NCBI GenBank assembly: GCA_003222375.1
Contig: QHVX01000009.1
Coordinates: 1 to 39,754 of the forward strand
Length of the DNA stretch: 39,754 bases
Reading direction: 5' to 3'
Source of the DNA: Acidobacteriota bacterium
Lineage (GTDB): Bacteria > Acidobacteriota > Thermoanaerobaculia > Gp7-AA8
Shown: piece after piece, positions 6,985-36,864 of the stretch
Numbering within the stretch: the stretch's first letter is position 1
Layout: each line of letters starts with the position of its first letter
Position numbers and translations under genes: made by a program
The notes under the pieces: model-generated
What the model was told of the DNA's origin: nothing
What the model saw: the letters and a program-made list of their open reading frames with translations, nothing else
Database searches by the model: none

Positions 6985-8076
6985 CTAACGGCCGATTTGG
7001 CTTTTTACCTTATTCGTCAGCTCGTTCAGGGACTGCAGAAGCTCTCTGAGCGACCCTTCGAGTTGTCTCACTCGGCTTTCCAGAGCGGCGACCTGACTGC
7101 TGCTCGCGCTGCTCGCAGTCGAGCGCGTGAGTGGGGGTAGCTCAGGCTCATCCATCAACGCCACTGCCAGAGGTGCCTCGAGGAGTTCTTCGGCTCCCAG
7201 CTCCTCGACTTCGTCGTGGACGACAGGGATCGGCACGGTGCCTGACATCGTCGCGGGCCGCTCGCGGCCTTCGAGAAGTTGCTCGAGTGACACCTCTTCC
7301 ATCTTCTCGTAGCCGGCGTCGAGCGGGTTCGCTTCCGGGAACGGAATCGAGTCGCCGAAGGGATTTGCTTCCAGCTCCGGGGCGGGCGGTGGTGGTGCGG
7401 GAACGCGTTTGTTGCCGGCGACGGTCTTCGGCCTACCGTGCTTCGCGGGCTTCTCCGGTTTCTTCCGTTCGATCGGCTCGGCTTTTCCTTTGAGCCGGTT
7501 GTAAAGATGTTTGGCGGTGATCTTCGAGACGAGCTTGAATGTCTCCATCACGCCTTCGCCTTTGATCGCCGACGCTTCGTGATACGGATAGCCTTCGAGT
7601 CCGAGCGCTTCCTGAAGATCGTCAATCGGCAGCACGCCGGGGATGTCGCGCTTGTTGTACTGGATGACGATCGGCGTGTCCCGGGGGTCGATGTTGTTCT
7701 CCTTCATGTTCTCGAGGAGATTGGTGAAGCTCTCCTTTGTGGACTCGACCATCGACGGCTGAGAATCGGCGACGAAGACGATCGAGTCTGCGCCTTTGAG
7801 CACGAGCTTTCGCGTCTCGTTGTAGAAGACCTGCCCCGGCACGGTGTAGAGCTGCATCTTGAGATTGAAGTTGCCGACCTTGCCGATGTCGACGGGGAGG
7901 AGGTCGAAGAAGAGCGTTCGGTCGGTTTTCGTCGCCAGCGACAGCATCTTTCCCTTCTGTTTGGGATCGAGTTTGTCGAAGATGACCATCAGATTCGTCG
8001 TTTTTCCGCACAGACCGGGACCGTAGTAAACGATCTTCGCGGTCATCTCACGTGTCGCGTGATTGAAGAGGACCAT
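6985..8076 (-). CDS. MglA-like Ras-superfamily small GTPase with a ~170-aa C-terminal Pro-rich and coiled-coil extension
   Basis: From ATG 8076 the translation reads MVLFNHATREMTAKIVYYGPGLCGKTTNL...DRTLFFD...LYTVPGQVFY...QYNKRD. This aligns by eye along the whole MglA core (P-loop, TVPGQ, NKRD). The tail contains PAPPPPAPE and a heptad-like stretch, SQVAALESRVRQLEGSLRELLQSLNELTNKV. Confidence 0.8.
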   Translation of the reverse strand: MVLFNHATREMTAKIVYYGPGLCGKTTNLMVIFDKLDPKQKGKMLSLATKTDRTLFFDLLPVDIGKVGNFNLKMQLYTVPGQVFYNETRKLVLKGADSIVFVADSQPSMVESTKESFTNLLENMKENNIDPRDTPIVIQYNKRDIPGVLPIDDLQEALGLEGYPYHEASAIKGEGVMETFKLVSKITAKHLYNRLKGKAEPIERKKPEKPAKHGRPKTVAGNKRVPAPPPPAPELEANPFGDSIPFPEANPLDAGYEKMEEVSLEQLLEGRERPATMSGTVPIPVVHDEVEELGAEELLEAPLAVALMDEPELPPLTRSTASSASSSQVAALESRVRQLEGSLRELLQSLNELTNKVKSQIGR

Positions 8077-8110
8077 AGTTTTCAAGAGTATCGCATAGAA
8101 TCCGCGGGCC

Positions 8111-8377
8111 GTGGATGAGGGCCCGGTCGAGATCCCGATCACCGATACACTCGACCTTCATGCGTTTCGTCCCGACGAAATTCGCGATGTGGCGCTGGAG
8201 TACCTCACCGAAGCGCGGACGCGTGGTTTCAGGCAGGTGCGGTTGATTCACGGCCGCGGCATCGGCATGCAACGTGCGAATATTCAGTCGATGCTGCGAC
8301 GTCTCGACTTCGTTCAGGACTTCTGGGACGACGCGTCCCTCGGAGCGACCGTGGTAGTGCTGAGGACTGAGGACTGA
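8111..8377 (+). CDS. stand-alone Smr (small MutS-related) domain protein
   Basis: 88-aa ORF with LDLHAFRPDEI...VRLIHGRGIG, typical of Smr domains. The last codons and the TGA stop lie inside the GGACTGA heptamer array. Confidence 0.7.
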   Translation: MDEGPVEIPITDTLDLHAFRPDEIRDVALEYLTEARTRGFRQVRLIHGRGIGMQRANIQSMLRRLDFVQDFWDDASLGATVVVLRTED

Positions 8378-8394
8378 GGACTGAGGACTGAGAA
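8360..8394. repeat. tandem heptamer array (CTGAGGA x4 plus one variant), left arm of cassette 1
   Basis: Read directly: ctgagga ctgagga ctgagga ctgagga ctgagaa. It is the inverted complement of the array at 8653-8683. Confidence 0.9.
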
Positions 8395-8413
8395 CTACGA
8401 TCGGTAGAACTAA

Positions 8414-8683
8414 TTGTGGACCGAGGGACAATTAGTGCATGAAAAAAACAGAATTGAGCGCTTTGAAGATCTCATCGCTTGGCAAAGAGCACGTCTGATG
8501 ACGAACGCGGAAGTGCGCAATGATTTATATCTCGCGCTGGACGTCGGTTATGTGGACGAGACCACAGCATTGACGATGATCGCGAGCGCGGAAGAAGTCA
8601 GTCGAATCATTGGTGGCTTGCGAAGCGCAGTGGCTCGCCAGAGGAAACGCACTCAGTCCTCAGTCCTCAGTCCTCAGTCCTGA
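8414..8683 (+). pseudogene. degenerate four-helix-bundle protein gene (23S rRNA intervening-sequence protein/Avd-like family)
   Basis: The translation NRIERFEDLIAWQRARL...AEVRNDLYLALDVGYVDE...EEVSRIIGGLRSAV matches the intact copy at 13940-14320. About 45 central residues are missing. The conserved ATG at 8439 is out of frame because of an A7 run at 8442-8448. Confidence 0.6.
8653..8683. repeat. tandem heptamer array (TCAGTCC x4), right arm of cassette 1
   Basis: Read directly. It is the reverse complement of the GGACTGA units and ends 2 nt before the nadA ATG. Confidence 0.9.
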
Positions 8684-8685
8684 TC

Positions 8686-9672
8686 ATGTCAACACTTCTC
8701 GAAGAGCTGCAACGCGTCAAGACGTTCGAGTACACCGAAGAAGACGTCGTTCAGTTCGAGGCCCTTCACGAGGAGATCCGATCGCTCAAGAAAGAGCGCA
8801 ACGCCGTCATCGTCGCGCACAACTACTACCGGCCTGAGATTCTGAAGGTTGCCGATTTCGTGGGCGATTCCCTCGAGCTGGCGCTGATGGCGTCCAACGT
8901 CAGGGACGCCGACGTCATCGAATTCTGCGGCGTGCATTTCATGGCCGAGACGGCGAAGATCGTCAATCCGTCGCGCACGGTTCTGCTCCCGAATCTTCTC
9001 GCTGGATGTCAGCTCGCCGGCTCGGCACCCGCCGAAGATCTGCGGGCACGCAGAGACGAACTGAAAAAGCAGTATCCGGATCTTGCGGTCGTCAGCTACG
9101 TCAACACGACTGCGGCAGTCAAAGCGCTCTCGGACGTCATCTGCACGTCGGCGAATGCGCCGAAAGTCGTCCGGTCGCTGCCTAACAAGAACATTTTGTT
9201 TGTCCCCGATCGGAATCTCGCAAATTTCGTCGCGAAGCAGGTTCCTGAAAAGAACATCATTCCGTGGGACGGGTTCTGCTACGTGCATCAGCAGATCACT
9301 CCGCAGGAGATCGAGCGAATCCGACAGGCCGATCCGGAGCTCGAAATTCTCGTGCATCCCGAATGTCGCCCCGATGTCGCCAAGCTTGCCAATGCCGTGT
9401 TGTCGACTTCCGGAATGGTCAAGTACGCGAAAGAAAAATCTGCAAAGCGGTTTCTGGTGGTCACCGAATGCGGACTCTCCGATCGGCTGGCGATGGAAGT
9501 CCCTGACAAGCAGTTCCTGAAAGGCTGCAAGCTGTGCACATTCATGAAGGTCACCACGCTCGATGACGTGCGCGACTCGCTGAAGTACATGCGCTACGAA
9601 ATCGAAGTGCCGGAGGAGATCCGTGTTCCTGCCGAGCGCGCGCTGCGGCGGATGTTCGATGTTGCGGGGTAG
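8686..9672 (+). CDS. nadA: quinolinate synthase A
   Basis: 328-aa ORF. The stretch AVIVAHNYYRPEILKVADFVGDSLELA...VVSYVNTTAAVKALSDVICTSANA...FVPDRNLANFV is collinear with the Thermotoga-type NadA that I recall. Confidence 0.9.
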   Translation: MSTLLEELQRVKTFEYTEEDVVQFEALHEEIRSLKKERNAVIVAHNYYRPEILKVADFVGDSLELALMASNVRDADVIEFCGVHFMAETAKIVNPSRTVLLPNLLAGCQLAGSAPAEDLRARRDELKKQYPDLAVVSYVNTTAAVKALSDVICTSANAPKVVRSLPNKNILFVPDRNLANFVAKQVPEKNIIPWDGFCYVHQQITPQEIERIRQADPELEILVHPECRPDVAKLANAVLSTSGMVKYAKEKSAKRFLVVTECGLSDRLAMEVPDKQFLKGCKLCTFMKVTTLDDVRDSLKYMRYEIEVPEEIRVPAERALRRMFDVAG

Positions 9673-9678
9673 TAGTCC

Positions 9679-9716
9679 ACCACAGAGGCACAGAGAACGC
9701 AGAGACCTCCGTGGTG
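9679..9716. repeat. palindromic hairpin element between convergent genes; possible bidirectional terminator
   Basis: CACCACAGAGG pairs with CCTCCGTGGTG (10 of 11 positions) around a 17-nt loop holding short CAGAG-type tandem units. It sits between the nadA stop (9672) and the kinase stop (9720). There is no clear U-tract. Confidence 0.45.
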
Positions 9717-9719
9717 AAA

Positions 9720-12167
9720 TCAGTGACAAATCAATTGGTAAACGCCGATGACATCATCGCGTACGTCATCGAGATCGGCCTTCATCTTCCCAACTGTTTT
9801 CTGAAACTCCGGGTCGGTCTCGATCGGCTGCATCCACGGATGCTTCACCCACGCGTACCAGCTGTGATTACTCAACTCGGCCGAGCGATTCACCCACGCG
9901 ACCGATTTTTGATGATCGCCGATCTTCGCGTAGCAAAGCGCCTGACGCATGGCAGCCCAGTGATTGTGCATTGCGTCCGGCTCGAATGACTTCAGCGCAG
10001 CCTCGCACGCCGCGCGATCTCCGTTGGCAGCCGCAATCATCGCGTGCAGACTCTTTCCGAGGTAGTGATTTGGAACGATGTGACTGACGCGATCGGCCTC
10101 CGATGTCGCGTCCTGCAAGTTACCGAGCAGGATGAAGGCGTTTGCGCGGATGTCGTGCCCCGCGACTTCGGTGTCCTTGGCGGCGAGCGCGGGTTGCGCG
10201 TTCTGCAATGAGCCTTCGGGGTCGACGGCGTTGACGTACCAGTAGCCGCGGACTTTTACCTCGTTCGAGTTCGGATCGAGCTTCTGCATCCGATCGGCAA
10301 TGCACTGCGTTTTCTGCGTATCGCCGATGGAGACGAAATAGGTGGCCATGCTGTTGAGCGCATGCGTGTCATTGGCGTTCAGGCGCAATGCGGCCAGCTC
10401 CTCGCGGACCGATTCGCGAAAACGTTCGGGAAACCGCACGAAGGCGCGGCCGAGGGCGAGGTGGGCGGTGGGGAGGTTGGGATCGAGGCGCACCGCCTGG
10501 CGCGCATACCACTCGGTTTTCTGCGCGACGTCGGGATCGGTATCGAGAGCACGGGCCTGACCGAGTGACAACGCGATCGCGAGATCGGCGTACGCAGCAG
10601 CGAAGTTCGGATCGAGCGCGATCGCCCGTTTCAGCGCCGCGACCTGGGTGCGATGCTCTTGCGGAACGAGGCTTCCGATGAGCGAACGCGCTTTGAGATA
10701 TTCCTCGTACGCTTTCGGATTCGTCGATCGCGCTTCCGATCGGCGGCTGATCTGCTGCACGCCGAGCTTCTGATTGAGCGCGGTGACCGTTCGCGACGAG
10801 ACATCGTCGATCAATTTGAGAAGATTCTCACGGCGGCCATCGATCGTGTCGGCCCACACGTTGTAACCGGTGCGCGCATCGGTGAGCTGTAAATTGACGC
10901 GCACCAGATCGCCGGCCGCGAGGAAATGTCCTTCCAGCAAACCGTCGACGTGCAGTTTCTGTCCGACGGTTTTCGCGTCGATCTTTTGATTGCGGAACTC
11001 CATGACCGCCGACGTTGGTCGCACCTGCAGGGATGGAATCTGCTGCAGGTTGGTCGTGAGCGCATCGGCAAGACCGACCGACAAGAAATCATCGCGCGCA
11101 TTGTTCGCGATGTTCGTCAACGGCAAAACCGCCATGGAGTGGATGGGCGGCGGAGCGGCCGTGCCCGTAGTCGTGGTCGCATCGTCGCTCACGCCACTGG
11201 TTTGCGCGAAGTAGATGGCCGTCCCGATCAACCCCAACGCCGCCAGCGCTATCACGATCCTCGGCCACCGCGCTCGATGGACGGTTCGGCCGATGAGGCT
11301 TCGCGAGTGCGATGGCGCGAGCGTGTGCCGCGCTGTTGGAGTGATCAGGACATCGAGGTCGGCGAGCACTTCGCGCGCGCTTTGATATCGATCCTTGGGA
11401 TCCTTCTGCAGGAGTTTTCCGATGATCCTGGCGGCGGCGGTTGGAAACGCCGAATCGCGCGGGACAAACGGCTCCGGTTCCGAGTCGCGAATTTTTTCGA
11501 GAACCAGCAACGGCGCGTCGGCGTTGAAGGGGAGCTGGCCGGACGCCATCTGATAGAAAACGATGCCGAGGCAAAAGAGGTCGCTGCGTTCGTCAGCAGG
11601 TTGGCCTCGAGCCTGTTCGGGCGAGAGGTAGTGCAGTGTGCCGAACAGTTGTCCGGTGGTCGTGTCGATCGACATGGCCGCAACTTCGCGATGCAGCGCC
11701 TTGGCGAGGCCGAAATCGAGAATCTTCACCTGGCCGGAGGGCTCGATGATGATGTTGGCGCTTTTCAGATCGCGATGGACGATGCCGCCCTCGTGCGCGG
11801 CTGCCACTCCGGCAGTGATCTGGCGCGCGACGTTGAGAAACTCGGCCGCTTCGAATGGACGGCGATGAATTCGCTGCGTCAGCGTTTCGCCTTCGCAGTA
11901 CTCCATGACGATGTACGGTGCACCGTCCGATTCGCCGACTTCGTGGATCGTCGCGACGTTCGGATGGCGAATGGCGGCCGCACTGCGCGCTTCGCGCATG
12001 AAACGCGCGCGGCGATCGCCGGCCGCCAGATCTTCCGCGCGAAGAACTTTGAGCGCGACAGTGCGCTCCAGACGCGAATCGCGCGCGAGGTAAACCGTTC
12101 CCATCCCACCTTTGCCGAGTACTCGGATGACCTCGAATCGGTCGAACGACTGCGGGACTTCAGTCAT
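9720..12167 (-). CDS. Ser/Thr protein kinase with a transmembrane segment and C-terminal TPR repeats
   Basis: 815-aa ORF with GKGGMGTVYLA, VALK, HRDLKSANIII, DFGLAK and SPEQ. A hydrophobic helix (IVIALAALGLIGTAIYF) is followed by TPR-like repeats. Confidence 0.9.
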   Translation of the reverse strand: MTEVPQSFDRFEVIRVLGKGGMGTVYLARDSRLERTVALKVLRAEDLAAGDRRARFMREARSAAAIRHPNVATIHEVGESDGAPYIVMEYCEGETLTQRIHRRPFEAAEFLNVARQITAGVAAAHEGGIVHRDLKSANIIIEPSGQVKILDFGLAKALHREVAAMSIDTTTGQLFGTLHYLSPEQARGQPADERSDLFCLGIVFYQMASGQLPFNADAPLLVLEKIRDSEPEPFVPRDSAFPTAAARIIGKLLQKDPKDRYQSAREVLADLDVLITPTARHTLAPSHSRSLIGRTVHRARWPRIVIALAALGLIGTAIYFAQTSGVSDDATTTTGTAAPPPIHSMAVLPLTNIANNARDDFLSVGLADALTTNLQQIPSLQVRPTSAVMEFRNQKIDAKTVGQKLHVDGLLEGHFLAAGDLVRVNLQLTDARTGYNVWADTIDGRRENLLKLIDDVSSRTVTALNQKLGVQQISRRSEARSTNPKAYEEYLKARSLIGSLVPQEHRTQVAALKRAIALDPNFAAAYADLAIALSLGQARALDTDPDVAQKTEWYARQAVRLDPNLPTAHLALGRAFVRFPERFRESVREELAALRLNANDTHALNSMATYFVSIGDTQKTQCIADRMQKLDPNSNEVKVRGYWYVNAVDPEGSLQNAQPALAAKDTEVAGHDIRANAFILLGNLQDATSEADRVSHIVPNHYLGKSLHAMIAAANGDRAACEAALKSFEPDAMHNHWAAMRQALCYAKIGDHQKSVAWVNRSAELSNHSWYAWVKHPWMQPIETDPEFQKTVGKMKADLDDVRDDVIGVYQLICH

Positions 12168-12189
12168 TGGCTACCCAAGCGATTCTACA

Positions 12190-12672
12190 ATGGCGAGTTG
12201 CATGATCGAGTTCACCGAGGATCGCATCCCGTCGCAGGGGCTTGCCGAGGCGGTCGATGACCTGGTCGAGCTGTTCGGAGGCGACCTGCAGTCGTCGCGG
12301 GAGGGCGAGCGGCGCTTCATTCTGCCCCTGCGTCGGGGGGTGGCGGTGGCGGGGGGAGTGGAGTGCACAGTCTCCTGGGCAATCGACGCGAGCGATCAGG
12401 CGACCGTGACGCTGGTCTGCAATCGCGATGTCGACGCGCCCAAAACGCAGCGCATCGCGATCCTCGTGGTCGGTGTCATCGGCGCCCTCACGTTCATGAT
12501 GTGGCCGTTCTTCGGTAAGCATGCGACGCAGCTCGGGACACTGGCCTGGATCGGCGGATTCGTCGCGCTGGCGGTTTACTTTCTGACGCTGCGGCGGACT
12601 TCCGGCGGCATCGCGTACGACTTTCTGCAGCGACTCGCGCGGCGGCAGCGCGAAACTACAACCGGTCCGTGA
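12190..12672 (+). CDS. hypothetical membrane protein (two predicted TM helices)
   Basis: ORF 12112..12672. I prefer ATG 12190 so that it does not overlap the divergent kinase start. It contains the hydrophobic stretches IAILVVGVIGALTFMMWPFF and LAWIGGFVALAVYFLTL. I recognise no family. Confidence 0.45.
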   Translation: MASCMIEFTEDRIPSQGLAEAVDDLVELFGGDLQSSREGERRFILPLRRGVAVAGGVECTVSWAIDASDQATVTLVCNRDVDAPKTQRIAILVVGVIGALTFMMWPFFGKHATQLGTLAWIGGFVALAVYFLTLRRTSGGIAYDFLQRLARRQRETTTGP

Positions 12673-13834
12673 GGATCGTCTTCGCGATCGTGGCAAGCTG
12701 CATGTTCGAGGTCCCTTCGTAGATCTTTCCGATCTTCGAGTCGCGCCAGAATTTTTCGACCGGATACTCCTTGGTGTACCCGTTGCCGCCAAAAATCTCG
12801 ACCGCGGTCGACGTCACCCGCTCGCACACTTCTGACGAAAAGAGCTTCGCCATGGCTGCTTCGCGGAGGAATGGCTTGCCGGCATCCTTCAGCCGCGCTG
12901 CGTTGTAGACCATCAGTCGCGCCGCCTCCAGCTGGGTCGCGGCCTGCGCGATCTGAAATTGAAGCCCCTGAAATTCGGAGATCGCCTTCCCGAACTGTCT
13001 CCGCTCTTTGGAGTAGGCGATGGCGTACTCCAGCGCGCCGCGCGCCACGCCGATCATCTGCGCGCCGATTCCGATCCGCCCTTCGTTGAGCGTTTCGATC
13101 GCGATTTTGTAGCCCTTGCCGGCTTCGCCCAGGACGTTTTCTTTCGGGACGCGGCAGTCTTCGAGGATCAGCTCACACGTCGATGACGCGCGGATACCGG
13201 TCTTGTCTTCCTTCTTTCCGACGGAAAAGCCGGGAAAATCGCGCTCGATGATGAACGCAGTGATGCCCTTGTAACCAGCGTCCGGATTCGCATTCACGAA
13301 CACGATGAACACTCCCGCCTCAGCCGCGTTCGTGATCCACAGCTTGCGCCCGCTGAGGACCCAGTGATCGCCCTTGTCTTCAGCGCGCGTCGCGAGAGCA
13401 AAGGCATCCGATCCTGAGCCGGCCTCCGAAAGCGCATACGCCCCGACGGTGTCGCGCGCGAGCATCGTCAGGTATTTCGATTTCTGATCGTTGTTTCCCC
13501 AGCGAAGAATCGCGTTGTTGACGAGGGTGTTCTGCACATCCACCAGCACGCCGCAGGACGCATCGACGTGCGACAGCTCCTCGACGACGATGACGGCATT
13601 GAAGAACGACGAGCCCGCGCCGCCCCATTGATCCGGCACCTCGATGCCCATGATTCCAAGGTCGAAGAAGCTGCTGATCAGCTCTTTTGGCATTGCCGCC
13701 TGGGGATCCATGTCGTGAACGAGCGGCCGGATCTTCTCGATCGCGAACTCGCGCACGCTCTGCTGGAACATCTGCTCCTCGTCGGAGAGTACGGTGAGCG
13801 GCGCACCAGCGGGGACTTCGATGGCAGGGGTCAT
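12656..13834 (-). CDS. acyl-CoA dehydrogenase (short/branched-chain type)
   Basis: The start is ATG 13834 (MTPAIEV...). The track ORF runs further upstream only by reading through the heptamer array (SSVLSPQSSVLSP). Family-typical stretches are GAYALSEAGSGSDA, GIGAQM and IYEGTSNMQ. Confidence 0.9.
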   Translation of the reverse strand: MTPAIEVPAGAPLTVLSDEEQMFQQSVREFAIEKIRPLVHDMDPQAAMPKELISSFFDLGIMGIEVPDQWGGAGSSFFNAVIVVEELSHVDASCGVLVDVQNTLVNNAILRWGNNDQKSKYLTMLARDTVGAYALSEAGSGSDAFALATRAEDKGDHWVLSGRKLWITNAAEAGVFIVFVNANPDAGYKGITAFIIERDFPGFSVGKKEDKTGIRASSTCELILEDCRVPKENVLGEAGKGYKIAIETLNEGRIGIGAQMIGVARGALEYAIAYSKERRQFGKAISEFQGLQFQIAQAATQLEAARLMVYNAARLKDAGKPFLREAAMAKLFSSEVCERVTSTAVEIFGGNGYTKEYPVEKFWRDSKIGKIYEGTSNMQLATIAKTILTDRL

Positions 13835-13847
13835 CTCGCGGATTATA

Positions 13848-13889
13848 GGACTCAGGACTGAGGACTGAGGACTGAGGACTGAGGACTGA
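13848..13889. repeat. tandem heptamer array (GGACTGA x5 plus one variant), left arm of cassette 2
   Basis: Read directly: ggactca ggactga x5. It starts 14 nt from the acyl-CoA dehydrogenase ATG. Confidence 0.9.
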
Positions 13890-13939
13890 GAAAATCCACC
13901 GCGCGTAGAGGGGCCTTTGCGACCGAGGGACAACTAGCC

Positions 13940-14320
13940 ATGGACAACAGAATTGAACGATTCGAGGACCTTATCGCGTGGCAAAAGGCGAGGCTTTGGA
14001 CAAGCGACATCTATCGAATGGCCTTAGAGGGACAGTTTGCCCGCGATATCGTTATGTCGCGGCAGATCCGAAGCGCCGCACTCTCCGTTCCCTCAAATAT
14101 CGCCGAGGGTTTCGAGCGGGGGAATCGCAATGAATTTCATCAATTCCTGTCGATCGCGAAATCTTCTGCAGCAGAAGTGCGTAGTGACCTCTACACTGCC
14201 TTGGATATCGGCTATTTGGAGGAGAAAAGATTCACATTGTTGCTGGGCGAAGGCGAGGAAGTTGCGCGGATTATCGGCGGTTTACGCCGAGCGGTGAATC
14301 GACAGCGAACGAAGAGATGA
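13940..14320 (+). CDS. four-helix-bundle protein (23S rRNA intervening-sequence protein/Avd-like family)
   Basis: 126-aa ORF. The stretch FEDLIAWQKAR...SIPSNIAEGFERG...EFHQFLSIAKSSAAEVRSDLY matches the family signature as I recall it. The 5' leader GACCGAGGGACAAyTAG is conserved with copy 1. Confidence 0.85.
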   Translation: MDNRIERFEDLIAWQKARLWTSDIYRMALEGQFARDIVMSRQIRSAALSVPSNIAEGFERGNRNEFHQFLSIAKSSAAEVRSDLYTALDIGYLEEKRFTLLLGEGEEVARIIGGLRRAVNRQRTKR

Positions 14321-14321
14321 C

Positions 14322-14367
14322 TCAGTCCTCAGTCCGCAGTCCTCAGTCCGCAGTCCTCAGTCCTGAG
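14322..14367. repeat. tandem heptamer array (TCAGTCC/GCAGTCC x6), right arm of cassette 2
   Basis: Read directly. It is the inverted complement of 13848-13889 and ends 4 nt before tRNA-Leu. Confidence 0.9.
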
Positions 14368-14370
14368 TTG

Positions 14371-14460
14371 GCCCCTGTGGCGGAATTTGGTAGACGCACG
14401 GGACTTAAAATCCCGAGGCCCGAAAGGGCCGTGCCGGTTCGAGTCCGGCCGGGGGCACCA
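14371..14460 (+). tRNA. tRNA-Leu (anticodon UAA), type II with a long variable arm and an encoded CCA
   Basis: Hand-folded. The acceptor stem pairs GCCCCTG with CGGGGGC. The anticodon stem CGGGA/TCCCG closes the loop CT-TAA-AA. The variable arm is GGCCCGAAAGGGCC. The T arm is GCCGG-TTCGAGT-CCGGC, followed by discriminator A and CCA. Confidence 0.9.
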
Positions 14461-14465
14461 ATGGA

Positions 14466-16118
14466 TCAGCGCGCCACGAATTTCGCGCGCGCAAATCCGG
14501 TCGTTCCGCTGATCTGATCGATGATCCCGACCGACAAAATGTTCTCGCCCGGGTTCACGCGGATCGCGGTTGTGAAGGTCATCGGCTTCGCCCGCACCGC
14601 CTGCTCCGCGAACGGCGGTATTCCCAGCCCTTGCGGGCGTCGTATGACTTCGGAAGTGCGCCCATCACCGGTGCCGATGACGAAGTAGAGGATGAATCCT
14701 CCGACGAGCTTTTGGTCCTGCGGAAGAAGCGTGATCGTCGAGGCCATCGTCACCTTCACCGGTACCTTGAATTTTCCATTCTCATTCGCTGGCGGACCGG
14801 TTCGAATCGAGATTGGCCACGCGCTCGAGGCGCCGTCGGTGTAGAGATTTGCGATGACGCGATCGCTCATCTGATCGTCGCTCGACTTGATCATGACGGT
14901 TTCTCGCGCACGCACCAGATACGCCGGATTTTTTAACTTCACCGTGATTTTGCGCGGCGTCCCACGTGACTCCGGCGGCCGATAGCCGAGGGAGTAGTAG
15001 GAATCGAGGTCCTTGCTGATGATGTCGAAGGCCAGATCGAAGTTCGTCGTTTGCGTGACGGCGACACCACCGGTGGCTCCCGCCATCGCCTTCAGTGCAG
15101 AGCCGGTGCTCGCAGCGCGAGAAAAGCTTTCGGTGTAATCGAGCGGAGCGTTGTTGTCGGCAGAAACTTCGTGCGCCGACTGCGCGGTCCCGATCGCATA
15201 GATCACGACGCCGTTTTCGCTCGCTCGCTTTGCGACGTCGTCGATCATGTCCAGGGTTCGATTGCCGGAGACTCCGGTGATCGCCTGCAAATTCGGAAGG
15301 TTCGCTTGCCCCATGTACGGCGAAAAGGCGTCGAAGGCATATCGATAAAGCTCGGCGCCGGGGCGGCCGGTGAGATGTTCCCCGACGAACAGGAGAACTT
15401 TCTTTCCTTCCAGACCGCCGATACTCGTCGCCATCCGCTCCATCGCCTGGAGCATCGGCTCTTGTTCGACGCTGAGCCGCTGCGCGTAACCGTCGATATC
15501 CATTTGCGCGCGGGTGTAGAGCTCCTGCCACGGAAGGAAGTTGTCCTCACCGAGGCGAACGAGATACTGAATGTCGCGCTTGGCCGCTTCGATGGCGACC
15601 TGCTGACCGTCTCCTGCCGGCGCCATGTGCCGGAGTTTGCCGATGGCGCGCTTGACGTCCTCTTTGTCGCTCGAGAACGGAAGAATCACGTGAAGACCGA
15701 GGCGCCAGCAGACGACCATCGCTTGATCTTCGGGCCGCATTTTCTGATCGACGAATCTCTCGACGGCGGCCAGGACCGCTTCTTTCTTCGCGTTCTGCAG
15801 CGAGGCGCTGTCGACGAAGAGAAGCAGCCGCCGTTGCCGCAATTCGAGCGGCACATCGGGTGGGGATGCATCGGCGCTTTGTGCGCCGGCGATATCGGTG
15901 CGGCGGACTTCGTAGAGATTCGTGATCGTCTGCTTGACGCCCTCTTCGTAGACTTCGAAGTCGTCCTTCGTCAGCCCGCTGACCGGATTGCCATGACGAT
16001 CGCGCACGACGACGTCGACGTTGACCACGCGCACTTCGATGGTCTCGACAAGTTTCTGCTGGGGAAATCCGGAGAAAGCCAGAAGCGAGATCAAGACGGC
16101 GACAGTGAGGGTTCGCAT
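14466..16118 (-). CDS. secreted VWA-domain protein of the VWFA-related acidobacterial type
   Basis: 550-aa ORF. A signal peptide is followed by IEVRVVNVDVVVRDRHGNPVSGLTKDDFEVYEEGVKQTI, the N-terminal signature I associate with TIGR03436-like proteins. A central VWA-like region follows. Confidence 0.8.
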   Translation of the reverse strand: MRTLTVAVLISLLAFSGFPQQKLVETIEVRVVNVDVVVRDRHGNPVSGLTKDDFEVYEEGVKQTITNLYEVRRTDIAGAQSADASPPDVPLELRQRRLLLFVDSASLQNAKKEAVLAAVERFVDQKMRPEDQAMVVCWRLGLHVILPFSSDKEDVKRAIGKLRHMAPAGDGQQVAIEAAKRDIQYLVRLGEDNFLPWQELYTRAQMDIDGYAQRLSVEQEPMLQAMERMATSIGGLEGKKVLLFVGEHLTGRPGAELYRYAFDAFSPYMGQANLPNLQAITGVSGNRTLDMIDDVAKRASENGVVIYAIGTAQSAHEVSADNNAPLDYTESFSRAASTGSALKAMAGATGGVAVTQTTNFDLAFDIISKDLDSYYSLGYRPPESRGTPRKITVKLKNPAYLVRARETVMIKSSDDQMSDRVIANLYTDGASSAWPISIRTGPPANENGKFKVPVKVTMASTITLLPQDQKLVGGFILYFVIGTGDGRTSEVIRRPQGLGIPPFAEQAVRAKPMTFTTAIRVNPGENILSVGIIDQISGTTGFARAKFVAR

Positions 16119-26779: not shown

Positions 26780-26978
26780 ATCATCGCGGCCTCCAGCGGC
26801 ATCGTCGACAAGACCAACGATCCTGTCCGCATGTATCTGCGCGAAATGGGGACGGTCAAGCTGCTCGATCGGCAGGGCGAAGTCGACATCGCGAAGCGCA
26901 TTGAAAAGGGCGAGCGCAAGGTCTACAAGGCGCTCTCGCAGAACCGCATCATCCTCGAAGAAATCCTGAAGATCCACG
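26780..26978. repeat. left arm of the 199-bp perfect inverted repeat (antisense copy of rpoD region 1.2)
   Basis: It is the reverse complement of 27087-27285, read base by base by eye. On the plus strand it encodes [66 protein letters not shown]. Confidence 0.9.
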
Positions 26979-27086: not shown

Positions 27087-27285
27087 CGTGGATCTTCAGG
27101 ATTTCTTCGAGGATGATGCGGTTCTGCGAGAGCGCCTTGTAGACCTTGCGCTCGCCCTTTTCAATGCGCTTCGCGATGTCGACTTCGCCCTGCCGATCGA
27201 GCAGCTTGACCGTCCCCATTTCGCGCAGATACATGCGGACAGGATCGTTGGTCTTGTCGACGATGCCGCTGGAGGCCGCGATGAT
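27087..27285. repeat. right arm of the 199-bp perfect inverted repeat (sense copy of rpoD region 1.2 on the minus strand)
   Basis: It is the reverse complement of 26780-26978. The flanking bases differ on both sides, which sets the arm boundaries. Confidence 0.9.
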
Positions 27286-29412: not shown

Positions 29413-31721
29413 TATTCCTCGAGCACGGCGACAGTAGCACCATCTCCTCCCTCGTTCTCATTGCCGGGACGCCACGATTTCACGGCCGGATGCTTGCGCA
29501 GATGCTCGCGCACGGCCTTGCGGAGCGCGCCGGTCCCGAAGCCGTGAATGATGCGCACAGCCTGCTTGCCTTCGAGCAAAGCGCGGTCGAGAAACTTGTC
29601 CGACGCTTCTAACGCGTCGTCGACTCGCTGGCCGATCAGATTGAGCTCTGCCGTCTCAGGGATGAGGGATGGGGGATGAGGGATGAATGATTTGTGAGAA
29701 GGCTTCATCCCTCCGCCCTCATCCCTCAGCCCTAAGAGCTCTTTACGATCGACAGTCATCCTCTTACCCGAAACGTTCAATACCGCCTTCGTCCCGTCAA
29801 TCGACTCCACCACGCCGCGCACCTTGAACTTGCGATGCTCCGCCTGATGTCCCACCCGAACCTCCCGCCGCTCTTCGGGCAGAAACTCGATTGCCTGATC
29901 GATCGGCTTCGTGAGCGTCGTGACGACCTGTCGCATATTCGCGTTCGCGCGCAGATTCTTGATCTCGTTCGAGACCTGACGCGAGACATCGTCGCGCAGG
30001 CGCTCCAGCTCTTCGCGAAACGCCGATCCGACGCGCGCGCGTTCGCTGTCGAATTTCTTACGACTGGCCTCCAGCGCTTGCCGCTCTTCTTCGGCTGCTG
30101 CCTGCCGCCTTTCGAGTTCCGCGCTTTGCTCTACAACGCTGCTCATTTTGTTCTGCAGCATGCCGACGAGTTGATCGACCTCGACATAGCGAGGTCCGAG
30201 TCGCTCGCGAGCGCGGTCGATGATGGGGGAGGGAAGACCGATCACCTGCGCCACTTCGATGGCGCGGCTGCGACCGGGAATGCCGACGATCAGGCGGTAG
30301 GTCGACTTGCCGGTCGCGGTGTCGAACTCCATCGACGCGTTGACGACGCGCGAGTCGTTCATCGCGAAGCTCTTCACCGACGAAAGATGCGTCGTGACGA
30401 TCAACAATGCGCCGCGCTCGAGGAAATACTCGATCACCGCGGCTGCCAACGCAGCACCTTCTTCCGGATCGGTTCCCGCTCCAAGCTCGTCGAGGAGGAC
30501 CAGCGATCGCTCCGTAGCCGCCGAGATCACGCGCTTCAACCGCACGAGGTACGCCGAAAAAGTCGAGAGATGTTCGGTAACGCTCTGATCGTCGCCGACG
30601 AGGACGTGAATCGCGTCGACGATCGGAATCATCGAGCCATCGGCAGCGGGAAGTGGGAGGCCGCTCATCGCCATCGCGACGAGAAGCCCGGTCGTCTTGA
30701 GCGCAACGGTTTTGCCGCCGGCGTTCGGTCCGCTGATGATCAGGGCGCTCGTCGCGGCGCGCAGCTCGACCGTGACCGGAACAACAGGTTGATCGGTTTC
30801 CTGCACGCGTTCATCGAGCAGCGGATGGCGCGCGTCGATCAGGTGCAGACGTCGATCGTTGTTGAATGACGGCCGGCTGGCGCCGACGGTGTCGGCGAAG
30901 ATCGCGCAGGCCTGCAGCGCATCGAGCTCGCCGGCAACGTGAATCGCGGCGCGAATGTCATCGGCGGCCTCGGCGATCAATTGCGAAATGAAGCGCAGGA
31001 TGCGCGCGATCTCTTCGCGTTCCTGCAGCAAGAGATCGGCGAGGTCGTTGTTCAACTCGATGGCCTGCATCGGCTCGATGAACACCGACGCGCCGGACCC
31101 GCTGCGCTCGTGCAGGATTCCGGGGATCGCGTTGCGATGATCGGTGCGCACCGGGATGCAGTAGCGATCGCCTCGCATGACGATCAGCGGCTCCTGGATT
31201 GCCTCGCCATGTTTGTTCATGACGTCGTGGAGGACGCGTTGGACGGCGTTGCGCTTTTCCGGCACGCGTTTGCGGATCGCGCGAAGCTCGGCGGATGCAT
31301 CCTCGCGAAGCTTGCCCTCGCGGGTGAAAAACTTGTTCAGCTTTCCGACCAGCTCATCGAGCTCCGGAATTGCGCTCGCGATCGCCGCGAGCCGCAAGAA
31401 GCCTTCGGTTCGCGTGCACGTCTCGCGCAGGGCTTGCGTCGCGCGGACCGCGCGAAAGACTTGCCACGACTCCTCGAGCTCCAGCACCGAATCGCGGGCC
31501 AGCAGCGCACGGACATCCGTCAAGCCGGCGAGCGGCATCAGCCCTTGCGTATGAACGAAACGCCGCATGTCGGCGAGATCGGCCTGCGCGTTTTCGCAGG
31601 CCGTGAGCGTCGGCAGGGGATGGCGCCTCGCGACGGCATCCTTGCCGGGGGCGCTTTTCGCCTCCATGGCGACGAGCGTCAGGATGCGATCGAATTCGAT
31701 TTCGTGGAGTGGTGATTTCAC
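29412..31721 (-). CDS. mutS2: endonuclease MutS2 (MutS domain V ATPase plus C-terminal Smr)
   Basis: It has the Walker A motif ISGPNAGGKTVALKT and the C-terminal Smr motif VRIIHGFGTGALRKAVREHL. I prefer GTG 31721 (VKSPLHEIEFDRIL) as the start. The longer track ORF reads through the octamer palindrome. Confidence 0.85.
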   Translation of the reverse strand: MKSPLHEIEFDRILTLVAMEAKSAPGKDAVARRHPLPTLTACENAQADLADMRRFVHTQGLMPLAGLTDVRALLARDSVLELEESWQVFRAVRATQALRETCTRTEGFLRLAAIASAIPELDELVGKLNKFFTREGKLREDASAELRAIRKRVPEKRNAVQRVLHDVMNKHGEAIQEPLIVMRGDRYCIPVRTDHRNAIPGILHERSGSGASVFIEPMQAIELNNDLADLLLQEREEIARILRFISQLIAEAADDIRAAIHVAGELDALQACAIFADTVGASRPSFNNDRRLHLIDARHPLLDERVQETDQPVVPVTVELRAATSALIISGPNAGGKTVALKTTGLLVAMAMSGLPLPAADGSMIPIVDAIHVLVGDDQSVTEHLSTFSAYLVRLKRVISAATERSLVLLDELGAGTDPEEGAALAAAVIEYFLERGALLIVTTHLSSVKSFAMNDSRVVNASMEFDTATGKSTYRLIVGIPGRSRAIEVAQVIGLPSPIIDRARERLGPRYVEVDQLVGMLQNKMSSVVEQSAELERRQAAAEEERQALEASRKKFDSERARVGSAFREELERLRDDVSRQVSNEIKNLRANANMRQVVTTLTKPIDQAIEFLPEERREVRVGHQAEHRKFKVRGVVESIDGTKAVLNVSGKRMTVDRKELLGLRDEGGGMKPSHKSFIPHPPSLIPETAELNLIGQRVDDALEASDKFLDRALLEGKQAVRIIHGFGTGALRKAVREHLRKHPAVKSWRPGNENEGGDGATVAVLEE
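29655..29732. repeat. GGGATGA-heptamer palindrome embedded in frame in mutS2
   Basis: AGGGATGAGGG (29658-29668) pairs with CCCTCATCCCT (29717-29727). GGGATGAA (29680-29687) pairs with TTCATCCC (29704-29711). The element is translated as ...GGGMKPSHKSFIPHPPSLIPE... just before the Smr domain. Confidence 0.55.
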
Positions 31722-31722
31722 A

Positions 31723-31785
31723 GGTTGTCGCGTTGTCGGGTTGTCGGGTTGTCGACAACCTGAGAACTCGACAACCTGACAACCC
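31723..31785. repeat. GGTTGTCG-octamer tandem array with an inverted copy (palindrome centred on GTCGAC)
   Basis: Read directly: ggttgtcg cgttgtcg ggttgtcg ggttgtcg | acaacc tgagaactcg acaacc tg acaaccc. It lies between the rpsU terminator and the mutS2 start. Confidence 0.7.
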
Positions 31786-31788
31786 AAC

Positions 31789-31817
31789 AAAAAAGGACCC
31801 GCCTTGTCGGCGAGTCC
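31789..31817 (-). terminator. intrinsic terminator downstream of rpsU
   Basis: On the minus strand, GGACTCGCC-GACAA-GGCGGGTCC is followed by TTTTTTG. It lies 25 nt after the rpsU stop. Confidence 0.7.
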
Positions 31818-31841
31818 TCGTGAGTTCAGTTCGATTTCAAC

Positions 31842-36013: not shown

Positions 36014-36036
36014 GGCCGGATAAGGATAAACCAAGT

Positions 36037-36107
36037 CAGAAGGCAGAAGGCAGCAGGCAGAAGGCTGCCTTACTTCTCCTTCTGCCTCCTGCCTCCTGCC
36101 TCCTGCC
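36037..36107. repeat. GGCAGAA/GGCAGCA heptamer array with an inverted TCCTGCC array (hairpin)
   Basis: The left arm (36037-36064) pairs with the right arm (36078-36107), with one mismatch per heptamer outside a perfect 9-bp core. The right arm encodes the last ~12 codons of the 264-aa ORF. The TAA stop lies in the loop. Confidence 0.6.
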
Positions 36108-36864
36108 TTGCTTCCTGGCTTTCTGGCATACCGATGGAAGGTGCGATAAAACGCGCCTCGCTGGTCGCATTCTCGATGACCGAGGCGTAAACGTAGGTAT
36201 TGGGGGCGCTGGTTTCGACGACCACGTTGAAGTTGTCGCCTTTCGCGATCAGGGGGAAGAGCGTCTGGATCGAGGTGTGCGCGAGGGAATTCGCTCCGAT
36301 TGCAATCCGCGCGACCGCGATGTTGCGTCCGGCTACCCGCTGCACGGCTAGTGTGAATGTCGCCTCGCGGTCGCCCAGGTTGACGAGGCCGAGGTTGGTG
36401 CGAAAGACGTCGCTGAACGAAAGATTGTTCAGCGTACGGAACGGATACGACGCATCGTTGTAGATGACCGGGATGGGCTCCGGCCGCGTGATGTCGGTGC
36501 CGCGGATCGCATACGCATTGGCTGCCACGCGCACGGAACGTTTCCCCATCGTCTCGACGATCAGCGGCGAGAGCGCGGCCTCCATCCCAAATGCCTGAGC
36601 GACGACGTCGGCAAATCGCTGTGTTCCGCCGCCGGGAAGCGTGAACGCAATTGTCGGCTGGTCTGGTGCCGTCGGGAGACGGAGAGCGACGAACAATTCC
36701 TCGCGGCCGTCGTTGTGCAGTTCGACGTCGGTTTTCCAACGGACCTCGTTCGGACCGGTGACGCTGCCGACGATCGGCACCAGGACGCTCACGCTTTGTG
36801 GCGTCTGCGCAAGTGCAGGCGCGGCAAGCAAAAGCGTGGCTAAGAATGGCCGCAACATATCCAT
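36070..36864 (-). CDS. secreted single-domain protein, paralogous to the duplicated C-terminal domain of the giant protein at 282-4949
   Basis: It has a signal peptide (LLLAAPALAQ). Motifs shared with both domains of the giant protein are VP.VG......W.TDV.L.N, FRTNLGL and VYASVIEN.T.E. Its ATG overlaps the upstream stop in a TAATG arrangement. Confidence 0.7.
   Translation of the reverse strand: MDMLRPFLATLLLAAPALAQTPQSVSVLVPIVGSVTGPNEVRWKTDVELHNDGREELFVALRLPTAPDQPTIAFTLPGGGTQRFADVVAQAFGMEAALSPLIVETMGKRSVRVAANAYAIRGTDITRPEPIPVIYNDASYPFRTLNNLSFSDVFRTNLGLVNLGDREATFTLAVQRVAGRNIAVARIAIGANSLAHTSIQTLFPLIAKGDNFNVVVETSAPNTYVYASVIENATSEARFIAPSIGMPESQEARQEAGGRRQKEK

Follow-up and report, generated by a model that had tools for sequence, protein, structure and literature searches.

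An inverted tandem-heptamer hairpin around a four-helix-bundle gene beside tRNA-Leu in an Acidobacteriota bacterium, and its proposed kinship with rRNA intervening sequences

Introduction

Positions 1 to 39,754 of contig QHVX01000009.1 from an Acidobacteriota bacterium (assembly GCA_003222375.1), hereafter called the window, contain a small intact gene for a four-helix-bundle protein of the S23p/Avd family, which is enclosed by two inverted arrays of tandem heptamers and lies between an acyl-CoA dehydrogenase gene (acd) and the gene for tRNA-Leu(UAA). Inverted heptamer arms turn out to be the rule for this protein family over many bacterial phyla, and comparison of the same site in close relatives shows that the cassette, i.e., the gene together with its arms, is an insertion that decays. 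By analogy with the intervening sequences of 23S rRNA that encode S23p, we lean toward the view that the locus is one copy of a widespread promoterless selfish cassette, of the same kind as those intervening sequences, which would be released from host transcripts by RNase III.

Inverted heptamer arms accompany the gene family

In the window, the two arms pair over 44 nt each (13847-13890 and 14321-14364), are 93% complementary, and are separated by 430 nt. Tandem Repeats Finder gives a period of 7 for both, with 97% matches in the 5′ arm, which is made of one GGACTCA followed by five GGACTGA, and 87% in the 3′ arm, whose unit (T/G)CAGTCC is the reverse complement of the former with T/G alternation at a single position (coordinates and copy numbers in Table 1). 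A pattern of two GGACTGA units with at most two mismatches has 17 matches in the window against 0.24 expected, and all 17 fall at the cassette locus or at 8357-8680. In the minimum free energy fold of the RNA, the arrays pair end to end, at -272.9 kcal/mol compared with -226.8 ± 7.9 kcal/mol for shuffled sequences (z = -5.9). A preliminary description of this stretch had counted six GGACTGA units and six inverted (T/G)CAGTCC units forming a stem of about 40 bp around an intact gene for a protein of 126 aa, and both the arrays and the gene are as it had proposed. The tight packing between acd and the tRNA gene also holds, although the distances had been overestimated: the tRNA gene begins 2 nt, not 4 nt, past the 3′ arm, and the acd ATG (position 13834, minus strand, gene identified by Pfam) is 12 nt, not 14 nt, from the 5′ array. 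An Rfam scan of positions 8000-15000 (E ≤ 1) returned the tRNA as its sole match, so that the insertion site is not inside a 23S or 16S rRNA gene, and the description of an architecture like that of rRNA intervening sequences but outside rRNA is confirmed.

The cassette holds a single open reading frame (ORF). Its product matches PF05635 (E = 1e-29; 103.2 bits, cut-off 33.8; coverage of 105 of the 106 profile positions) and TIGR02436 (E = 9e-27; 93.5 bits, cut-off 24). Residues S49, S52, N53, I54, A55, E56, G57, and F58 are invariant in an alignment of 34 sequences, and the motif S-x3-N-x2-E, here within SNIAEGF, is a reported feature of the family (PMC3936711). The nearest solved structure, by sequence similarity only, is that of Xcc0516 (PDB 2GSC; E = 1.2e-9), and family members, Xcc0516 among them, assemble as pentameric toroids (PMC4990558). 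Between the intact gene and its ortholog at the same site in a relative (locus L083), the ratio of nonsynonymous to synonymous substitution is 0.08 (dN 0.107, dS 1.40). Thus, the gene is under strong purifying selection and is not a passive passenger. Relatives of the protein in databases form 7187 clusters at E ≤ 1e-5, and many of them end in TQSSVLSPQS, a translation of TCAGTCC repeats. No defence-system model of PADLOC matched. Carriage of the subfamily by phages was considered and rejected, because a single weak match (41% identity) was obtained in 2.9 million viral contigs; a search of plasmids gave only 13 matching records, all below 60% identity.

The generality of the arrangement was assessed by a census in which one genome per GTDB species was scanned and 80 loci were retained. 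These represent at least 12 phyla: Cyanobacteriota, Acidobacteriota, Deinococcota, Planctomycetota, Nitrospirota, Chloroflexota, Desulfobacterota, Armatimonadota, Methylomirabilota, Gemmatimonadota, the Bacteroidota/Chlorobiota/Ignavibacteriota group, and Pseudomonadota. The count took in complementary arms with a score of 14 or more within 250 nt on either side of the gene, and 237 equally spaced placements in the same loci served as controls. Inverted tandem-heptamer arms were found at 69 of the 80 homologue loci and at none of the controls. Two more distant homologues, on a Nostoc plasmid and a Riemerella plasmid (33-43% identity), are likewise flanked by inverted arrays, of GGGAAAA type and AAGGTTC type. 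Cultured organisms are among the carriers, for example Calidithermus chliarophilus DSM 9957 (L060) and Thiohalophilus thiocyanatoxydans DSM 16326 (L058). The preliminary description had made its case dependent on arrays and genes occurring together elsewhere, and they do. None of 60 other loci contains a tRNA gene, and thus the proximity to tRNA is particular to the site in the window.

Over these loci 23 distinct units were distinguished, including GAGGACT (22 loci), GAGTGCT (17 loci), GAGTGAT (6 loci), GAGTAAC, GAGTTCC, AAGTCCA, and GAGTCGC. The unit varies from locus to locus, yet is always shared by the two arms of one locus. The nearest protein neighbor has the same unit in 26 of 71 loci, compared with 10 expected (permutation p = 0.01). 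Because unit type tracks protein relatedness in this weak manner, the sequences suggest that the arms travel with the gene and yet turn over fast and in concert. In three cassettes (L015, L016, and L027) the four-helix-bundle gene has premature stops or frameshifts while the arms are intact, and such damage agrees with genes often decaying inside hairpins that persist.

The orthologous site in close relatives

Orthologous loci were collected from a metagenome scan with the acd protein (82-96% protein identity), and the state of each site was read from the interval between the acd ATG and tRNA-Leu; percentages given here are acd protein identities to the window. A full cassette is present in the window and in L083 (93%). 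In L081/L070 (96%), two entries that represent the same locus of a Thermoanaerobaculia genome bin (82-87% nucleotide identity), by which the window is assigned to Thermoanaerobaculia, the gene is truncated at its 5′ end, and in L103 a gene fragment is left. L085 (92%) and L086 (90%) have a solo GGACTGA hairpin with a loop of 47-56 nt, and L082 (95%) has a small remnant. No trace of a cassette is seen in L087 (91%), L101, L089, L092, and L095-L097, which are empty sites with two conserved boxes, described below. Empty sites upstream of tRNA-Leu, which the preliminary description had pointed to as informative, therefore exist alongside truncated and solo-hairpin intermediates, and it follows from this series that the cassette is an insertion that decays.

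The loops of the solo hairpins in L085 and L086 align to one and the same internal segment of the gene. The nucleotide alignment score is just 15-19, and the link becomes convincing only after translation: the loops read GKFVDDIGVM and GKFAEDRVLRS, which match the conserved GxFAxDxV helix (helix 2) of the protein. Since their translations are remnants of this helix, both hairpins are best explained as worn-down cassettes. A different kind of hairpin occurs in the cassette-free sites L090, L100, and L104, where solo hairpins of other heptamers (GGTTGCT and GGTCACC type) lie between a -10-like box and tRNA-Leu. L090 has two hairpins with one shared unit (about 1780-1845 and 2369-2447), some 520 nt apart, and hairpins of this type are thus dispersed repeats in their own right.

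The window also includes a second, decayed cassette, which the preliminary description had recognized. Its gene remnant (8439-8651) has a frameshift in a run of seven A and an internal deletion of about 55 codons, and over residues 78-125 it retains 58% identity to the intact copy. The decayed cassette is wedged between two genes: the TGA stop of a Smr-domain gene falls within its 5′ arm, and on the other side nadA starts with an ATG at 8686.

Transcription of the cassette and a proposed mechanism

Two boxes are conserved in the interval between acd and tRNA-Leu. On the acd side, GCGAATCATA(T/G) or GCGGATTATAG is found in 12 of 12 aligned orthologous sites, and the former reads TATGAT on the acd strand, a few nt before the acd ATG. 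On the tRNA side, a (C/G)GTTAT(C/G)AT box lies 10-31 nt upstream of the tRNA gene in 9 of 9 sites without a GGACTGA cassette. In occupied sites, the window among them, the acd-side box is retained as GGATTATAG, the array begins directly after it, and the tRNA-side box is gone. The two boxes are putative divergent -10 elements. Because the one in front of the tRNA is lost at occupied sites, the comparison supports the notion that transcription of the tRNA either passes through the cassette or starts at the left edge of the latter, which agrees with the earlier proposal that the element must be co-transcribed with the tRNA or supply its promoter. A scan of the plus strand between 13600 and 14600 detected neither a sigma-70-like promoter nor a terminator, and is uninformative for non-canonical promoters. 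As a separate observation on acd, TATAAT or TATGAT is only about 7 nt from its ATG in this lineage (sites L081-L104 and window positions 13835-13847), and this short distance suggests that the acd mRNA is leaderless or has a short leader; in more distant relatives, the acd leader is longer and has a GGAGG ribosome-binding site.

Among the census loci, the host gene on the upstream side has the same orientation as the cassette gene in 48 loci versus 9, and the downstream one in 48 versus 8, where orientation was called from ORFs and not from annotated genes. For 34 of the 48 co-oriented upstream genes, the stop codon falls in an interval that extends from 6 nt before the start of the arm to 22 nt inside it. 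Since host stops crowd the arm in this way, the cassettes occupy minimal operon spacers without room for a promoter of their own. The arms also differ in their reading: the upstream arm read inward has stops in every frame in 50 of 73 loci, and the downstream arm read outward is fully open in 54 of 73. The latter is why some annotated homologues run through the arm, as in L083, whose four-helix-bundle ORF (P0002) continues through the 3′ arm into the tRNA.

Intervening sequences of 23S rRNA that encode S23p are known from Leptospira, Coxiella, and Xanthomonas (Ralph and McClelland, 1993; Warrier et al., 2016, PMC4990558). The element of Coxiella has a 28-bp terminal stem, which is cut by RNase III in mid-stem as mapped by rapid amplification of cDNA ends; it has, at the 5′ end of the element and starting at the cleavage site, two to three tandem GACAGAT heptamers whose copy number varies between strains; and it encodes an S23p of the same family, in a decaying ORF (PMC4990558). 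The cassette in the window shares with such elements the PF05635 protein, the location of the gene in the loop of a long terminal stem, the decay of the ORF, and a similar size of about 430-520 nt, and both are regarded as selfish. It differs in lying outside rRNA, between a protein gene and a tRNA gene, and in having a 44-bp stem that consists entirely of heptamers. Furthermore, its Shine-Dalgarno sequence is inside the loop and would survive cleavage, whereas that of Coxiella is removed by cleavage.

In the mechanism that we favor, the cassette would be composed of a four-helix-bundle gene of about 380 nt with its own ribosome-binding site, placed between inverted 7-nt arrays. Being promoterless, it would ride on a host transcript, and at the present site this transcript would include tRNA-Leu, the ancestral -10 box having been displaced by the insertion. 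Base pairing of the arms in the RNA would give a stem of about 44 bp, a candidate substrate for RNase III by analogy with the Coxiella element. Cleavage would free a stem-capped mRNA that keeps the ribosome-binding site, together with the flanking host RNA, and RNase P would then complete the tRNA. The stop codons met on reading inward would uncouple the cassette from host translation. Release in this way would let a general cassette be tolerated in settings as different as rRNA, tRNA leaders, cas operons, and ordinary operon junctions, and decay of its gene would leave solo heptamer hairpins. Recombination between arrays of the same unit and the activity of the encoded nucleic-acid-binding pentamer are candidates for its movement. 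Processing, hitch-hiking on host transcription, and mobility are thus what we infer for the cassette, and it is most economical to regard the rRNA intervening sequences as a special case of it.

Alternative explanations

Several points weigh against this mechanism. The RNase III step is taken by analogy from rRNA intervening sequences. At the site in the window, the upstream neighbor acd is divergent, which leaves no read-through from an upstream gene, and a start in or just before the 5′ arm must be assumed. Neighboring genes are ordinarily co-oriented in about 70% of cases, so that the 84-86% around cassettes exceeds this by only a moderate margin. In a comparison of occupied with empty sites, the cassette has replaced about 30-55 nt without any target-site duplication, and no route of insertion is indicated. 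In addition, mismatches between the arms number 52 of G-U type and 65 of A-C type on the sense strand, with 140 transversions, and carry no wobble signature of selection at the RNA level. Without an excess of G-U, pairing could be kept at the DNA level or by homogenization instead of by selection on the sense RNA, and the wobble counts do not separate RNA-level from DNA-level pairing. They would suit an element that acts as DNA, in which a trans-acting recombinase or transposase recognizes the arrays as ends, in duplex or single-strand hairpin form, or the arrays are homology for RecA exchange, and the RNA stem is incidental. The use of one unit by both window cassettes, and of one by the two solo hairpins of L090, would fit such an element, as would the weak correlation of the unit with protein relatedness, which suggests that arms travel with the gene, and the presence of the cassette in some close relatives and its absence from others. 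However, there is no transposase or recombinase in or next to the cassettes, the lack of target-site duplication at the orthologous site counts here as well, and symmetric arms predict random orientation of the gene, yet co-orientation is about 85%. A loop of 430 nt makes cruciform extrusion unlikely, and RNase III cleavage has been experimentally shown for the related rRNA elements. We therefore consider an element of this type rather doubtful, while taking it seriously.

One more point against the RNase III-released cassette is a sequence preference in the arrays. In 22 of the 23 distinct units, an AG is held in phase, mostly with T or G next, and the resulting core (G/A)AG(T/G), although the phasing was picked to maximize it, goes together with the strict 7-nt period beyond what pairing requires. 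Such a periodic core, with other positions variable, favors some recognition of the arrays by a protein. The encoded protein itself may be the one, its pentameric ring binding about five tandem units of single-stranded RNA or DNA for autoregulation or as a propagation particle, which would be compatible with both the promoterless cassette and the DNA-level element. The toroids formed by family members agree with this, typical arms have about 3-6 units, and Avd, a relative, binds nucleic acid and reverse transcriptase. Considering that array length spans 2 to about 17 units, that solo hairpins of unrelated units exist with no gene nearby, and that the phasing was chosen in favor of the core, we judge the arrays unlikely to be binding sites of this protein. 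Far less probable still, to the point of being effectively refuted, is that the arrays are neutral repeats made by slippage and found near the gene by chance, with no element at all. Among long simple-sequence repeats, heptanucleotides are indeed reported to be the most abundant class in many prokaryotic genomes (summarized in PMC4679880), but neutral slippage is contradicted by the complementary arms on both sides of most homologues and of no control, by the concerted change of unit in the two arms, by the gain and loss of the cassette as a unit at the orthologous site, and by the excess of pattern matches in the window.

Other hairpins in the window

Besides the two cassettes, the window has three hairpins without a gene, which probably belong to the same phenomenon as the cassette (Table 1). 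That of GAGGGAT type corresponds to about residues 663-688 of MutS2, just ahead of the Smr domain (693-767), and recalls the in-frame palindromic elements of Rickettsia. A Smr-domain coding sequence thus adjoins both this hairpin (29415-29640) and the decayed cassette (8111-8377), possibly by coincidence. The octamer hairpin follows an intrinsic-terminator-like hairpin with a T-run on the minus strand (about 31795-31825), and ORF 36070-36864, upstream of the CAGAAGG-type hairpin, terminates in the loop of that hairpin. Elsewhere, two minus-strand ORFs overlap at their ends with a perfect inverted repeat of 199 nt (26780-26978 and 27087-27285, arms 108 nt apart), which could stem from an artefact of assembly or from inverted duplication in the very recent past. 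Around the intact cassette, a VWA-like gene is a further neighbor in addition to acd and the tRNA gene, and the leader of the cassette has a motif, CCGAGGGACAA, in common with other cassettes of its subgroup (the second copy in the window, L002, L006, L083, and L103).

Table 1. Features of the two cassettes, their surroundings, and the solo hairpins of the window.
Feature	Position	Strand	Remarks
Spacer between acd and array	13835-13847	-	Contains ATTATA (13842-13847), which is TATAAT on the minus strand, 7 nt upstream of the acd ATG; putative -10 box
5′ arm	13847-13890	+	6.3 tandem heptamers; TGA in all three frames read inward
Cassette leader	13891-13939	+	Shine-Dalgarno-like GAGGGA (13925-13930), 9 nt before the ATG
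Four-helix-bundle gene (PF05635/TIGR02436), 126 aa, intact	13940-14320	+	Stop codon abuts the 3′ arm
3′ arm	14321-14368	+	6.9 tandem heptamers; no stop codon read outward
tRNA-Leu(UAA)	14371-14460	+	Conserved upstream -10-like box GGTTATCAT of cassette-free sites missing here
Second, decayed cassette	8358-8686	+	Arms 8358-8392 and 8652-8686 of GGACTGA unit, 35 nt, 94% complementary
Solo heptamer hairpin, GAGGGAT type	29654-29737		16-nt loop; in frame within mutS2 ORF (29415-31721, minus strand)
Solo octamer hairpin (GGTTGTCG)	31723-31784		Abuts mutS2 GTG start (31721, minus strand)
Solo heptamer hairpin, CAGAAGG type	36029-36113		36-nt arms, 86% complementary; between two minus-strand genes

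Comparison with known systems and implications

Apart from rRNA intervening sequences, the cassette resembles several kinds of known elements in part. The cyanobacterial repeats called STRR, which are tandem heptanucleotides, were reportedly described by Mazel et al. in 1990. TAACTGA heptamer arrays are known from Beggiatoaceae, Cyanobacteria, and Bacteroidetes as direct, intergenic repeats of unknown function with a single inverted case (MacGregor, 2015, PMC4679880). The cassette arrays have in common with STRR-like and TAACTGA repeats that they are intergenic tandem 7-mers, often at start or stop codons, with variable copy number and a patchy distribution over phyla, and GGACTGA of the window shares ACTGA with TAACTGA; however, TAACTGA was described without a link to four-helix-bundle genes or to a hairpin enclosing a gene (PMC4679880). 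Avd proteins of diversity-generating retroelements have a homologous four-helix-bundle fold and are pentameric and nucleic-acid-binding. Unlike avd, the window gene sits in a hairpin cassette and not in a retroelement operon, and its immediate neighbors, which were examined, include no reverse transcriptase and no template or variable repeat.

Repetitive extragenic palindromic sequences (REP) and bacterial interspersed mosaic elements (BIME), miniature inverted-repeat transposable elements (MITEs), and the palindromic elements of Rickettsia are, like the cassette, dispersed and palindromic, occupy short intergenic spacers, and can decay to short hairpins, and some of them sit in frame in genes, as the mutS2 hairpin does. 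Those elements have a family-specific sequence and no coding capacity, and MITEs have target-site duplications. In contrast, the cassette combines tandem-heptamer arms of variable sequence with a conserved gene under selection, and has no target-site duplication.

PF05635 genes have been seen within cas operons (PMC3936711), have been linked to CRISPR adaptation modules (PMC10910872), and have been reported within insertions of 16S and 23S rRNA in bacteria of the candidate phyla radiation. No paper that ties four-helix-bundle genes outside rRNA to inverted heptamer arrays was found in the full-text literature, in which subscription journals are mostly outside coverage. Thus, the architecture outside rRNA apparently is undescribed, as the preliminary description had supposed, and elements of the S23p kind range far more broadly than the literature covered would indicate.

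The S23p/four-helix-bundle family has thousands of members, and a function has been assigned so far only for the Avd branch, while the rRNA intervening sequences in which it occurs have for 30 years remained a curiosity. If the usual home of the gene is an inverted heptamer hairpin that is able to occupy rRNA, tRNA leaders, cas operons, and operon junctions, these rRNA elements are a special case of something more general. If this is true, some enigmatic heptamer repeats, such as STRR-like arrays and solo hairpins, would gain a testable origin, and the reported association of the family with CRISPR may be no more than a result of insertion into operons that are well transcribed. As a module for expression that excises itself and is insulated from translation, the cassette may also be of practical use. 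More tentatively, and with more doubt than conviction, one may suppose that the four-helix-bundle (S23p/TIGR02436) genes are carried by a class of promoterless, hairpin-bounded selfish cassettes that spans the bacteria, that rRNA intervening sequences, many STRR-type repeats, and solo heptamer hairpins, including those in frame, are forms or decay products of this class, and that the encoded pentamer recognizes the 7-nt arrays or helps to generate them. Such a class would represent a mobile element without a known transposase, and with it a new mechanism of propagation.

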